Below, one piece after another: positions 1 through 37,198 of a DNA stretch of 64,000 nt; the first letter of the stretch is position 1; the number at the start of each line of letters is the position of its first letter. Origin of the DNA: Octopus vulgaris (taxonomy: Eukaryota); the NCBI GenBank assembly GCA_951406725.2, contig OX597820.1:91884001-91948000 (forward strand), given 5' to 3'. Below the pieces are notes generated by a model. That model ran no database searches. It was not told the origin of the DNA and saw only the letters and a program-made list of their open reading frames with translations. Both the position numbers and the translations under genes were made by a program.

Positions 1-2345
1 TATATTTCGGTCTGAATTCTGTAGGACAAAATCTAAAGCTCATAAAAGTGAAGAAACTATAATAAATTGAACACCTGTTGCATATATGAATATACAAATA
101 TGAAGAATTATTTCATATCTGATTTAAAGATTTCGTTATTTTACAGTAACTCATTCATGATATGAAACATATGAGTGACAATTTGGATGCGGTACTGTAT
201 ATAAATTGGGCATCTTTATAAATTTATTATACGTATTTGTTTGAGTGAATGACTACAAGAGATCTTTTTCTTGATCATGCAAACATGCGACCTCTCGGGA
301 ACTAAATTATCTAAGTAGGGAGTGACTGAATCATGTACGTGTATCCTAGAATTTGGAATTATTTTAGGTGTGAATATATGCATGCAAAATTGATAAATGT
401 CTGGTTCATATTTAAGTTGAAATAGCGTTCATAAAAGAAACTATTGAAAACGCATCACTTCATATGTAGCCTGTCTGTAGCAAAATTGTACGAATTTAAT
501 GCCATGTTTTCCTGCAAGAAGAAATCAGAATTGATAAAATATGATTTTACGTGCTTGAATAAACTGCACGAGTTAGTGATCAGCTAAGGGAGGCGTCATA
601 GTGACTACTAAGTGTCTCGTTGATACTTCAAATATGCTAAACTGTGGTAAATTTTATCAGATTCATTATGCTCTGTATCTGGCCGTTTATTTGATCATTG
701 ACCAATTTTTGAGCCTAAAGAATTGATATTTCTGACTACATTATACTAAGACACGTTAAAATAAATATTATAGACATCCGTGCGTAAATATTTACCGGAT
801 TAAGCTTTGTGGATCTGAGACATATTTACAATTTTGATATTCTAATGCATGCATTTTTAATATGAGATTGACAGAAAATAGATTAGAATTTAAGAAAATA
901 AAACGATGCGATACGATACTCTAATATAGGAAATATATTATTGGAATTGCTATTTTTTTCTGTAAAGATATCAAGCAAAATACACCCAGTTAATTCTTGA
1001 GAAAATATAAACTAAATAAATTTTTTTTTGTTGTATGTAATAACATATGCGTAAAAAAAGAATTAGTGATTAATAGAACTGACTATCTACATTAAATCTA
1101 CTTAAATATTCATCTGCATTGTATATTTGTATTAAGCAAAGCTACTTTACATATGTACAGGTGTTTGTATTTTAAAAAGAATTTGTAAAAAATAACCATG
1201 TCTAGAATTTCAAATTTAATATTCACGAATGATACACTACATTAAACATTTATAAAAAATATATATATTACAATTAAAGAAATATTCATAAGTATATACC
1301 TATGTGTATTTGTTTGTTTGCTTGCTTGTTTTTTGTTTGTTTGTTTTTTTTGCCTTTGTATACGTGTTTGCGTGTATTTAAACTGCTTAATAACAATCTG
1401 AATAACTCCAAAATGCACAGTATCATTGATTTAAGTATTGCTAAGTTTACGTTATGTTAACAGTGTTCTACAAGCATATACATAAACAGTGTTTAACATT
1501 GTTATTTTATCCAGTTTTGAATGATGCGGAAAGAGGCACTCCTGTTTCTTTCGGCGTTGTATTATGAACAAGATATCAGAATATGAGACTAACTAACTAT
1601 TAAATATGTAAATTTGATTTTTCTGAAACTGGTATTCATCCAATTGTATTTGATTTTTGTTGTAAAATTTAGTTAGGAATCCTAAGCTAGCTATGAATTT
1701 ATATTAAATTATATGTAATACATTTCGTAGAGACACAGGAGACTATCACGGTCTTTAAACGAAGATCTAAAAACTTCTAACAATCAAATTTTCATGCATT
1801 TTGCTGCAGGAATACAACTGTGACAGATAAAAAGAACATTCCATCATTCCTTAATTGAAGTAAATGTTACAATTAAGATAATGAAATGTATTACCCTAGA
1901 TCTTGGTTAAGAAGGGACTGGAAAGACTTAGCGGAACAACTCCATTTACTCCTGCTGAGATGTCACAAGATTCAAAATTTTGTCTCTTCCAGTACTGAGA
2001 TTGACTGACTATGACATAGAGAATGACAGGGATGGAGCAGATGAATATTCTAAATAAACAATCATGAAGAAAGGAATCAACTAACTTAACATTTTCAAGG
2101 ACCGCATAGAGGTCCTTCTTATCATTAAAATACATTTTGTGAAAAATTTTTACATATATATCGTATTTTATAACTATGCCTATTTAAAGTACTATAAAAT
2201 ATTAGTAACTCATTCGGTATGTGCATTAAATTGATTCAATTACATACATACACACACATGCATATGTTTTTGTATGCATGTGTCTATGTATGTATGTATG
2301 CACATATATAAATATACATGTATATAAAGGCGAGTTGTATTATAA

Positions 2346-2756
2346 GGGGTAGGCGTGGCCGTGTGATAGGAAGCTCGCTTTCCAATCATATGGTTCCAGG
2401 TTCAGTACCACTGCGTGGAACCTTGAGCAAGTGTCTCCTACAATAGCCTCGAGCCGACCAAAGCCTTGTAAGTGGATTCGGTAGACGGAAACTGAAAGTA
2501 GCCTGTTTTACATATATGTGTGTGTGTGTGTATGTGTGTGCGCGCGCGCGCGTTTGTATCTTTGCGTGTCTGTGTTTGTACCCCCCCACCATCACTTGAC
2601 AACCGATGTTGGTGCGTTTACGTCCCCGTAACATAGCAATTCGGCAAAATAGACCGATAGAATAAATACTAGACTTACAAAGAATAAATCCAGGGATCGA
2701 TTTGCTCGACTAAAGGCGGTGCTCCAGCATGGGTGCAGTCAAATGACTGAAACCAG
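2346..2756 (+). mobile_element. tRNA-derived SINE, family A (CORE-like) with internal microsatellite
   Basis: A/B-box-like head (tggccgtgtgatagg ... ggttcagtacc) and CORE-like accttgagcaagtg. Near-identical copies lie at 45613 and 51188. Confidence 0.85.
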
Positions 2757-2765
2757 CACAGATGT

Positions 2766-2813
<48 letters not shown>

Positions 2814-3012
2814 ATAATAATTCTCTAAAAGGGATATAGACAGTAACTGCTCGATAACATAAGGGACTAAAGCCATCTGAATATGGCTAGGGACAGGGCA
2901 GGGTGGTGGGGGTGTTACTGTTGCATTTAGCCCCAGGCGAACATCGACGTCACCAGAAAGGCTCGACACCGTCACGGTGCCCTTACCCTGCAAAGGGAGG
3001 TAATTCCCCGAT

Positions 3013-3086
3013 GAAGCGGAAACCACACACGGACCATGGTTTCAAGGTGTATTGCCTATCATCGGCGTGTGGTAGGCCTCCGCTTC
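3013..3086 (-). ncRNA. Type I hammerhead ribozyme (inverted copy)
   Basis: Exact reverse complement of 3287-3360. Predicted GUC cleavage between 3032 and 3031. Confidence 0.75.
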
Positions 3087-3286
3087 CTGCTCGATAACAT
3101 AAGGGACTAAAGCCATCTGTCCCTAGCCATATTCAGATGGCTTTAGTCCCTTATGTTATCGAGCAGTTACTGTCTATATCCCTTTTAGAGAATTATTATT
3201 ACTTTCGAACAGATTTTCGTAATCAGCAAATGTGTTTTGCTTGAAAATCTATATAAGAAAATCCTGCAGGGTAGGAATTCGTCGAG

Positions 3287-3360
3287 GAAGCGGAGGCCTA
3301 CCACACGCCGATGATAGGCAATACACCTTGAAACCATGGTCCGTGTGTGGTTTCCGCTTC
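3287..3360 (+). ncRNA. Type I hammerhead ribozyme, copy 1
   Basis: Helix I is cacacg/cgtgtg, a UAC/U internal loop, then 12 bp gaagcggaggcc/ggtttccgcttc. Core CCGAUGA at 3308-3314. Helix II agg/cct with loop caataca. GAAA at 3330-3333. Palindromic helix III ACCAUGGU. GUC cleavage after 3341. Confidence 0.8.
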
Positions 3361-3646
3361 ATCGGGGAATTACCTCCCTTTGCAGGGTAAGGGCACCGTG
3401 ACGGTGTCGAGCCTTTCTGGTGACGTCGATGTTCGCCTGGGGCTAAATGCAACAGTAACACCCCCACCACCCTGCCCTGTCCCTAGCCATATTCAGATGG
3501 CTTTAGTCCCTTATGTTATCGAGCAGTTACTGTCTATATCCCTTTTAGAGAATTATTATTACTTTCGAACAGATTTTCGTAATCAGCAAATGTGTTTTGC
3601 TTGAAAATCTATATAAGAAAATCCTGCAGGGTAGGAATTCGTCGAG

Positions 3647-3720
3647 GAAGCGGAGGCCTACCACACGCCGATGATAGGCAATACACCTTGAAACCATGGT
3701 CCGTGTGTGGTTTCCGCTTC
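3647..3720 (+). ncRNA. Type I hammerhead ribozyme, copy 2
   Basis: Identical to copy 1, 360 nt downstream. Predicted cleavage after 3701. Confidence 0.8.
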
Positions 3721-3875
3721 ATCGGGGAATTACCTCCCTTTGCAGGGTAAGGGCACCGTGACGGTGTCGAGCCTTTCTGGTGACGTCGATGTTCGCCTGG
3801 GGCTAAATGCAACAGTAACACCCCCACCACCCTGCCCTGTCCCTAGCCATATTCAGATGGCTTTAGTCCCTTATG

Positions 3876-3911
<36 letters not shown>

Positions 3912-6105
3912 GCAAGTTCTCTCTCACACACGAGACTATTCTTGATTACTGAAAATTAGAAGCGTACATCACAGAATCTGATGTCTACTTAATCATTAAG
4001 ATGCAGGGGTTGGAAGCGGAAATATCAATAATTATGCTTTTGATAATACGTTAAACATGGCCACTTGGTTTTTCGATTGATCTGAGGAACAGCTGCGTTT
4101 TCTGTGCCATTTTCTGAATATGAAGTGTCAAAATCTATTGAAGACATTCTAGTTGGAAACAATAGCTTTCCGCTATAGTCGGTTTACGAATGGTTTCACC
4201 AATTCAAATGTAGTCGCAAAAGTGTCATAAGTGTGCTGGCTACTCTTACTTTGTTAAAGATAACGTTAAAAGAGCCCATGACATGGTTTAGCTTAACAGA
4301 CGGAGACTAAAATATGCTCAAATTCATCATAATAAATCAAGTAAATAAATCAACAGCAACAGAATTGACATTATTAGTGTATGTGCAAGATGAATCCTGG
4401 AACAACTCACTCTACATTTTTTCCATGAAATCTTGGTTAACTAAGGTAATGAAATAGCATTTGCTTATTAAAGAATCTAATGATCAAACATATGAAGACC
4501 ACTACAAATCTAACAGGAAACAACAGCCTATACAATTGACACATTCGCAATCACCTGTCAGAAAAATGTTCATATTTGAAATATACGCAAGAAACGAGCG
4601 GTTGTCAGATGCGTGGAACAGGCAATGACCAACACTAAAGCTTTATATATAACATGGCTCTACAGTGAATAGCTATTGATACAGATGCTTTTTGCCATGC
4701 TAAAACATTTGTCTTGAAACAAATGGCAAGAGCTGCTGCTGAAGCCATTAGGTTTATATATGATAACAATTGTCATTGGTGAAATCTTCGAGAAATTGGA
4801 AGTTGATGTATAGAAATATTTGCTATATAATCATAAAGGTGATCCATAGGAATATAAAATATACGTTCTTCACAAAGATAGATGATTTTAAAAGCTGTTG
4901 TGCTGGCGTTGACTACATGGTGAAAAGTCTAAGCATATGCGACTGGAATGTTTTTCTTCTGAAGACACACACAAAAAAAAAACATTACGACATGAAACAG
5001 AAAGCCGACTGAAAGTTAAACAGACTGTTTGGGAAATTTTATTCCACTACAATTAAAGCATATCTTGAAATAAATTTGAAATATTTACAGAAAGAAAATG
5101 GACCCCTGAACAATAGTTTTGTCTCAACCAGCATATGATGCAGTCATGGCAACTATAATACCATCAACAACTTAAATTTTCAATTTCAAATTTGCACGGT
5201 AGTGACTAAACCAAAACAATGTTGTGGTATGCGGGCAATAAATTTACCTAACAATTAGAAATTTCTCAGTGTTAGTTTGTCAATGACTAGTGAATAAGAG
5301 ATTAAGTCATTTTCTAACCATATAACTTTGAATTTTATCTTTTGTACATAGGTAAATCTAGAATACAAGCTATTTAATTCTTCTAACTGTATGTCCTGCC
5401 AAATGTAAACAAGTATTTTTCTGTATGCATAGTATCATAAATATTAATATATCCGCTTTTAGATTTCTCTTTCTGTATATGTGTGCGTGTGCTTGTGTGA
5501 GTTTGTGTATGTGTGTGTGCACATATGTATGTATGCTGTAATGGTATGTGCTTGTAGCTGTAATGTTATGAGTAGCTGAATGTCCAATTTATGTGTGAAC
5601 GAATGCTTTTGTACCCAACTCCACTTCGACTCATGTCTATATGAGTGCATCAAATATGAAAATTCAAATTTTTTAATAATTTATGAATTTATACCACGAA
5701 ACTGAATGAATTTAAATATCGGTTTTATTCAAATTATTAGCAGGCTTCCGTTGGTAAGTAAATCAAATACATCATAATCATAGACACATTTCCTTAAAAT
5801 TTCTGAAATATAAAAAGAAAAGTTTAAAATGGAAATAAGCAAGAACAAATTCCTTCAAATCAAGCAAATATTGGCAAACGTATATTAAGTCATCTATCAA
5901 TTTATTAATATGTATGTGTGCATCTAAATAAAGATTGTTAGGCGACAAGATGCAAAATCTACAAGAAAATTCAATATTTCAGCATTCCAGTGAACGATAA
6001 TGCAAGAAACAATGATGAATTTTAAATGAAAACTTACAATTTCCAGGAGAAAACAAAGAATTTCACGTGAATTCTTCAGACAATTTTAAAAGAATGCACA
6101 CACGC

Positions 6106-36632: not shown

Positions 36633-37198
36633 AGCGAGCTGGCAGAAACGTTAGCACGTCGGGCGAAATGCGTAGCCATATTTCGTCTGCCGTTACGTTC
36701 TGAGCTCAAATTCCGCCGAGGTCGACTTTGCCTTTCATCCTTTCGGGGTCGATAAATTAAGTACCAGTTACGCACTGGGGTCGATATAATCGACTTAATC
36801 CGTTTGTCTGTCCTTGCTTGTTCCCTCTGTGTTTATCCCCTTGTGGGTAGTAAAGAAATAGAAATAGGTATTCTCTCTGCCGCTACATTCTGAGTTAAAT
36901 TCCACTGAGGTCGACTTTGCCTTTCATCCTTTCGGGGGTCGATAAATTAAGTACCAGTTACGCATTGGTTTCGATGTAGTCGACTTAATCCGTTTGCCTG
37001 TCCTTGTTTGTCCTTTCTGTGTTTAGCCCCTGTGGGTAGTAAAGAAATAGGTATTCCGTCGTCCGTCTTTAATTATTAATTTTAAATTCCGTACAGGGTG
37101 ACTTTGCCTTTCATTCTTTTGGGGTCGATAAAATATGTAGCAGCTGAGCACTGGATAACGATGCAAATTACTGGTCTTGTGCTACAATTTGAAACCAA
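36633..37198 (+). mobile_element. SINE family B with tandemly reiterated body (about 3 units)
   Basis: A full copy at 36633-36860 is followed directly by headless bodies at about 36865-37050 and 37050-37198. Confidence 0.8.

Follow-up and report, generated by a model that had tools for sequence, protein, structure and literature searches.

Which enzyme spreads the retrozymes of animals, and whether a circle serves as its template, are the questions raised by a tandem repeat in the genome of Octopus vulgaris; published papers propose Penelope-like elements (PLEs) as the answer to the first question on the basis of co-occurrence and homology. The repeat lies in a stretch of 64,000 nt (assembly GCA_951406725.2, contig OX597820.1, positions 91,884,001–91,948,000 of the forward strand), and this whole stretch is called the window below. 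We analysed the repeat within the window and searched the same genome for its copies, its relatives, and candidate enzymes.

Anatomy of the element in the window

An earlier note on this DNA had described positions 3117–3879 as a tandem with two identical 360-bp units, and this was confirmed by an exact period-360 identity over the interval (360/360 bases between units). The boundaries were correct for the tandem and too narrow for the element, since an inverted arm (2810–3088) and a junction patch (3087–3119) had been missed. Likewise, the reading as a retrozyme-like repeat was supported, and it had taken no account of the (TA)n target, of the inverted arm, or of the fixed 3′ ends at two sites distant from the cut, which tie the family to PLE enzymes. 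The claim that the repeat contains no credible ORF was borne out, the longest Met-ORF in a triple unit being 35 aa on the plus strand and 50 aa on the minus strand. A Pfam match was absent for nine window ORFs (9 of the 14 listed). In the following list of features, unit position 1 is 3342, the first base past the predicted cut.

2771–2810, no strand: (TA)n target, left flank (TRF)
2810–3088, minus strand: inverted arm, 5′-truncated, unit 304 to 222, 279 bp, 100% reverse complement of 3285–3563
2810–2853, minus strand: 44-nt "tail", unit 179–222, present only at the inverted-arm end (end census)
3026–3071, minus strand: third hammerhead motif, within the inverted arm (window motif scan, coordinates mapped from the inverted-arm alignment)
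3087–3119, minus strand: 33-bp junction patch, unit 185 to 153, overlapping both arms by 2–3 nt
3117–3879, plus strand: direct arm, 2.12 identical units, unit 136 to 178 (period-360 identity)
3263–3387, plus strand: extended helix I around hammerhead 1 (MFE folds)
3302–3347, plus strand: type I hammerhead 1 (motif scan, folds, covariation)
3342–3701, plus strand: predicted cut-to-cut monomer, 360 nt, placed from two hammerhead motifs
3485–3502, plus strand: hairpin immediately 5′ of the short start site, retained by sister families (helix 5, 87.7% of cells paired)
3662–3707, plus strand: type I hammerhead 2, same sequence as hammerhead 1, predicted cut after 3701
3877–3905, no strand: (TA)n target, right flank (TRF)

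Both outer ends of the element adjoin (TA)n. The 3′ end of the inverted arm, at 2810, is the "long" start site, and that of the direct arm, at 3879, is the "short" start site; a tail of this kind is a PLE feature (PMC8557442, PMC11167929). The junction patch may reflect a template jump, and similar patches were present at three other loci (L048, L095, and L219). The hairpin at 3485–3502, in which two-sided changes were found at 1/5 pairs, is a candidate part of the RT-binding signal. The window copy belongs to a minor sub-lineage with seven differences from the majority unit, four of which fall within the extended helix I (3270–3274 and 3387) and four of which are common to locus L031. All seven were present in every pass, and there were no pass-specific changes.

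Elsewhere in the window, a 190-bp repeat in two copies (89%) was observed at 36686–37050, and a GC-richer stretch was observed at about 2590–2755, to the left of the element. The hammerhead motif scan found no motif in these two intervals, which resemble dispersed SINE-type repeats.

A type I hammerhead with a U4C core

The 62-locus census and the motif scans showed a type I hammerhead topology in every unit. In hammerhead 1, helix I (3302–3307/3342–3347) continues through a UAC/U loop into 12 further pairs, the core occupies 3308–3314, helix II is formed by 3316–3318 and 3326–3328, GAAA lies at 3330, and a palindromic helix III spans 3333–3340, with C17 at 3341 and the predicted cut after this base. 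The anatomy appeared in the motif scan and the MFE folds as the earlier note had drawn it, and the folds also contained the imperfect extension of helix I (3263–3307/3342–3387) that it had reported. The core CCGAUGA had been quoted with the right letters; that it represents a U4C departure from CUGANGA had not been flagged. Helix II has three pairs above a U-U mismatch. The remaining hammerhead requirements were all present, namely the C3-G8 pair, G5, A6, and A9, GAAA, A15.1-U16.1, and an NUH site. A search against Rfam, suggested earlier as a check, returned no hammerhead among 29 matches (E ≤ 5, window 2000–5500).

The circularised monomer folded at −116.9 kcal/mol, compared with −93.7 ± 5.7 kcal/mol for 60 shuffles (z −4.1). 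In a single unit, the active fold lay 7.4 kcal/mol above the MFE, with pair probabilities of 0.08 for helix II and 0.00 for helix III, and two helix III palindromes can pair with each other at −11.2 kcal/mol. U4C is said to lower activity considerably in vitro, yet it supports viroid infectivity, and the U10.1-U11.1 mismatch is tolerated in hammerheads (PMC3088659); a hammerhead search elsewhere used a CYGANGA descriptor (PMC13481778). U4C is already known in nature, and its fixation in genomic families was not found in the literature searched. We read the motif as a putative ribozyme, weak but maintained.

Copy number and age of the family

A search of the octopus genome (2.8 Gb, 227 contigs) gave 634 candidates, the best 40 of which were scored and yielded 246 matches, with an identity of 96–100% among the 150 matches listed. 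A loose core pattern gave 1,502 matches versus 18 for the reversed control, and all 1,209 copies of an exact 26-letter core had C at position 4, none having U. The copies lie on many chromosomes with distinct flanks and haplotypes, and divergence from the majority unit was 0.34% of bases in the first 40 loci. The recent origin proposed in the earlier note is supported. From its sequence, the element is a young, dispersed, protein-free retrozyme-like repeat family.

The unit was present in contigs of all four public runs examined (24 runs listed). A joint going back 360 was seen in each of the four and a contig of 390 nt in three, as would be expected from a circle but equally from tandem DNA. 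The unit occurs in contigs that bear two other organism labels (public runs X13 and X15), and the X13 contig has the core letter of a second subfamily at 3312.

The insertion footprint at 62 loci

Insertions were compared at 62 loci, comprising the window, 39 others from the genome search, and 22 from the core-match list of contig 1; the decayed copy L212 and non-family matches were omitted. Forty of the 62 were the best-scoring of the 634 candidates, and therefore the sample favours long, young copies. Head-to-head inversions were found at 48/62 loci and single arms at 14/62. The 3′ ends fell at two fixed sites 44 nt apart, 178 and 222 nt past the predicted cut: unit 178 was the exact end in 48/110 and unit 222 in 39/110 (87/110 together). 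A short end was paired with a long end in 41 of the 48 inverted insertions, and (TA)n adjoined 99/110 3′ ends. The 5′ ends, by comparison, were scattered, with 4/110 lying within 5 nt of the cut versus 3 expected, and run-off at the hammerhead cut site was rejected on this count.

Arms longer than 360 nt were common (84/120), the longest reaching 3,282 nt, with up to nine units per arm, and 217 predicted cut sites were read through. The two arms met without a gap in 37/48 junctions (24 overlapping and 13 flush). Target duplications of 12 bp were visible at two of three non-TA sites (L053 and L094) and absent at the third (L057). At the L032 and L043 junctions, the arms overlap by 32–34 nt where unit 12–46 meets unit 280–326. 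These are the two strands of the extended helix I, which suggests that the cDNA ends were joined through the element's own stem.

Craig et al. (2021, PMC8557442) name among the features of PLEs a truncated 5′ end, partial tandem copies, a 5′ copy in inverted orientation, a tail of 30–40 bp at one of the two ends, and insertion into microsatellites. In the experiments of Frangieh et al. (2024, PMC11167929), both strands were nicked and extended by a purified PLE protein, with synthesis beginning at two internal sites, one at each border of the tail, a feature described there as unique to PLEs. The footprint matches the two-site internal priming signature of PLEs, and we infer that a PLE enzyme made the insertions.

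Candidate PLE enzymes in the same genome

A GIY-YIG search gave 6,136 candidates, of which 150 were scored and 48 loci among these were examined. Two very young autonomous PLE families with intact frames in many copies were identified.

L130–L146, e.g. L141:2439–4784: 781-aa PLE family (P0002), hammerhead core with U3-A8
L175–L204, e.g. L196:895–3222: 775-aa PLE family (P0001, a 574-aa part of the 775-aa frame), hammerhead core with U4C

In the PLE frames, RVT_1 was just under the Pfam cut-off (E ~1e-6) and GIY-YIG was over it. All 76 scored copies of the P0001 family were 100% identical to the query protein. Both families end at two sites before (TA)n, with 13 short and 4 long ends among 17 in one family (one short end without TA in range) and 13 short and 17 long ends among 30 in the other. 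Their tails are ~32 and ~38 nt long, compared with 44 nt in the repeat family. These features point to an autonomous PLE that is active in the same genome. Some copies of the 775-aa PLE sit in close opposed pairs.

The unit lacks an ORF with RT and GIY-YIG and so is not an autonomous PLE itself. Comparison of the unit with PLE 3′ ends by blastn (52 loci), nhmmer (80 loci), and local alignment (15 ends) revealed no similarity, and no sequence shared with the pseudo-LTR of a partner was found in the 48 loci examined (150 of 6,136 candidates scored). The one blastn match beside a PLE (L147:6272–6317) proved to be a separate insertion of sister family B, and profile matches near PLEs were likewise separate insertions.

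Covariation, sister families, and the spread of U4C

The unit (family A) has older sister families, designated B, C, D, E/G, F, and H, and copies of families B to H were found at L147:6085–6318, L149, L205:6465–6962, L206, L207, L208, and L221:512–735. Family B gave 2,608 candidates (~90% to the query), and families E/G gave 1,204. The sister series implies repeated waves of expansion. Long frames that look retrotransposon-like by eye were noted at L205:2–3090, in the flank of a family D copy.

Covariation was assessed on 14 hand-picked single copies, some of them decayed. In the hammerhead alignment, 82.4% of 313 cells were paired and two-sided changes were found at 12/23 pairs; in helix I, the latter were found at 5/6 pairs. 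Of 500 shuffles, which ignore relatedness, 0–1 reached any covariation measure, and slid controls did not exceed 44.7%. The hairpin at unit 50–67 was 63% paired, with the alignment out of register there, and a stretch near unit 96–107 was well conserved across all families compared. The helices, the core, and the helix III palindrome persist, with compensatory changes, across eight family labels whose mean column identity is ~58%. Helix III is palindromic in different letters in families A, B, D, and H, family D has a covariant U3-A8 core pair, and the internal-loop letters are not the same in families A and B. The palindromic helix III to which the earlier note had pointed, and conserved helices in other genomic copies, for which it had suggested a search, were both recovered. 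Because covariation extends across sister families, the hammerhead appears to be under structural constraint.

The C at core position 4 has a wider distribution than the unit. Family B has U4 (CUGAUGA in 12 of the 15 cores read). In family G, position 4 was C in 13/20 cores and T in 6, and G5A was found in 4; as read from these letters, the pattern is that of CpG decay from a C4 ancestor. The hammerhead of the P0001-family PLE carries C4 and the same U-U mismatch in 32/32 motifs, and L103, an older relative, has U4. Five of the 11 inner branches of the family tree are open, and the tree fits more than one number of U4C origins.

Circular or linear template

The 62 loci fell into 23 haplotypes. 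Each locus had up to 14 differences from the majority, which as a rule were common to all passes and both arms, so that the arrays were uniform within a locus and different between loci. Pass-specific substitutions amounted to ~0.5 per pass, and 67/109 full passes were clean; such changes recurred in the same pass at another locus in 5/160 cases and in any pass in 14/160 (L098 left out of these counts). The predominance of all-pass over pass-specific changes suggests that a single monomer was reiterated at most insertions, because plain copying of a linear array should give the opposite pattern and can make arrays shorter but not longer. Read in this way, the arrays lean somewhat towards a reiterated monomer, that is, a circle. 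We consider a ribozyme-made monomer, either circular or jumped end to end, to be the probable template. The earlier note had deduced a circular template from the identity of the units; identity alone is no proof, and the family-wide bottleneck pattern supports the idea indirectly.

Cut-and-ligated circles have been proposed for retrozymes (PMC7229834, PMC4209133, PMC6765202), and by analogy a ribozyme-cut, ligated circle can account for the reiteration. The same result might come from strand transfer between repeats or from duplication at the DNA level. Private variants found in several but not all passes, at L032 (passes 2–4), L067, L044, L031, and L037 and in some cases on both arms, may reflect mixed templates, multimer circles, local duplication, or assembly. 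Those at L032, L067, and L044 count against one circle because one circle does not explain them. Reverse transcription might have left strand-biased errors, and a raw count in 40 loci gave 24 G>A versus 5 C>T; in 62 loci, after removal of ends, clusters, and L098, the figures were 20 versus 12 (p = 0.08), and this line of evidence was rejected.

Proposed mechanism and alternatives

The family is very likely mobilised by PLE machinery, and we regard it with reasonable confidence as a non-autonomous Penelope-type element of the non-LTR retrozyme kind. In the proposed mechanism, the array would be transcribed, and the weak U4C hammerhead would cut slowly, probably as a dimer via the palindromic helix III or with the help of a protein. 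A host ligase would then circularise the monomer of 360 nt. Working in trans, a PLE protein with RT and GIY-YIG domains would nick both strands of a (TA)n tract, and reverse transcription would start inside the RNA, at unit 178 on one strand and at unit 222 on the other. Each cDNA would go round the monomer for a variable number of passes, and the two cDNA ends would then be joined by short overlaps to give an inverted-plus-tandem insertion. Several results weigh against this account: no partner sharing sequence with the unit was found among the loci and ends compared, the 44-nt tail is longer than those of the two PLE families, the 5′ ends show no excess at the cut, and a single unit does not adopt the active fold as its MFE.

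A different template is conceivable with the same enzyme. PLE machinery might have copied uncut linear multimers, the hammerhead being a weak or idle relic of a PLE pseudo-LTR and the arrays regrowing by cDNA strand transfer or DNA-level duplication. This is a possibility to be taken seriously, though we doubt it. The U4C core in 1,209/1,209 exact-pattern copies, the lack of a pile-up of 5′ ends at the cut, and the single variant in three adjacent passes at L032 would all fit it. In the anole PLE, uncut RNA was the main substrate, hammerhead mutants left insertion unaffected, and no reads ended at the cut (PMC11167929); among Xenopus retrozyme dimers, 1/9 was cleaved in vitro (bioRxiv 10.64898/2026.07.22.740005). 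However, the helices, core, and helix III palindrome have been kept with compensatory changes, and C4 is no one-off decay, given that family G had C4 too. Pass-specific changes should also accumulate in linear multimers, yet all-pass changes dominate.

The insertions might instead be the work of a LINE-type, non-PLE enzyme that targets (TA)n and produces inversions by twin priming. Twin-primed inversions and microsatellite-targeting LINEs exist, and no sequence-related PLE partner was found among the loci and ends searched. Nevertheless, as in PLEs, the two arms face outwards and begin at fixed internal positions separated by 44 nt, and the PLEs of the same genome leave the same footprint, whose tail is described as unique to PLEs, which makes a LINE origin very improbable. 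An ordinary satellite or an assembly artefact with a chance hammerhead-like motif, with which the lack of an Rfam hammerhead match would agree, is largely refuted by the 1,502 motif matches versus 18 in the reversed control, the covariation, the copies on many chromosomes with distinct flanks and haplotypes, and the presence of the unit in 4/4 public runs examined.

Relation to known elements and significance

The class to which the preferred reading assigns the family, non-LTR retrozymes, is already known, also in a mollusc at the same size (mussel, 350–390 bp). The metazoan non-LTR retrozymes of mussel, axolotl (Rtz_353), and coral (Cervera and de la Pena 2020, PMC7229834) share with the present family non-coding tandem units of ~360 bp, one type I hammerhead per unit, thousands of dispersed copies, and long target duplications, the comparison with the mussel being one of descriptions, not of sequences. 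The octopus units are tandem, non-coding, and within 150–450 bp, and they are dispersed, lack an LTR, and show a target duplication of >4 bp where one is visible. In axolotl HHR_Amex2, helix II likewise stands on a U-U mismatch, helix III is 2 bp long, and cleavage is better in the dimer (PMC7229834). For the retrozymes in PMC7229834, RNA, cleavage, and circles were demonstrated, whereas those of the present family are predicted and its core is U4C. The words "inverted" and "microsatellite" are absent from the main text of PMC7229834, so the footprint of two ends, inverted arms, and (TA)n is not described there. The family itself was not found in the literature searched, although Lunse et al. 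2017 and the supplements of PMC7229834 and PMC4209133 may already list such motifs; the main text of PMC13282606 does not contain "ribozyme", "hammerhead", or "retrozyme".

Mobilisation of retrozymes by PLEs has been proposed twice before. Li, Clavereau, and Pollet (2026, bioRxiv 10.64898/2026.07.22.740005) make the same proposal, that retrozymes borrow PLE enzymes, from co-occurrence and pLTR homology in 35 species, none of them a mollusc; the present evidence comes from the anatomy of the insertions, and no homology to a PLE pLTR was found among the loci and ends compared. EN+ PLEs (Neptune/Nematis type, PMC8557442; Poseidon PAc, PMC11167929) and non-autonomous Chlamys elements such as MRC1 have in common with the present family a truncated 5′ end, partial tandems, a 5′ copy in inverted orientation, the one-end tail, microsatellite targets, and a hammerhead upstream of two internal RT start sites. 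The present family differs in having no ORF, up to nine units per arm, and a tail of 44 nt versus the 30–40 nt reported. Non-autonomous Chlamys elements match their partners at the 3′ end, whereas the present family resembles none of those tested. Natural U4C hammerheads (the viroid variant cited in Perreault et al. 2011, PMC3088659; CYGANGA in PMC13481778) indicate that C4 occurs in nature and is sufficient in vivo for a viroid; here, U4C is fixed in whole genomic families, namely retrozyme family A, the older family G, and one active PLE.

In the octopus, the priming footprint of PLEs can be read to the single base in a very young family, and two intact candidate enzymes are encoded in the same genome, so that the published in vitro PLE assay could be used to test both which enzyme is the partner and what serves as template. 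The fixed U4C core of the family shows that a change regarded as crippling can persist through repeated expansions, and families of this kind would escape standard searches. Tentatively, the observations might be joined in one scheme, in which a PLE enzyme would recognise a circular ribozyme RNA by its shape, not by shared sequence, and would reverse-transcribe it in rolling-circle fashion on both strands of the target, beginning at two fixed positions inside the RNA. U4C would then be an attenuation favoured repeatedly, in family A, in family G, and in one active PLE, all of which have relatives with U4; it would either protect circles or multimers from being cut or make cleavage dependent on the PLE protein. 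If this were true, a telomerase-like RT and a small circular template would be available as a ready natural pair, and searches based on CUGANGA would be missing whole retrozyme families.
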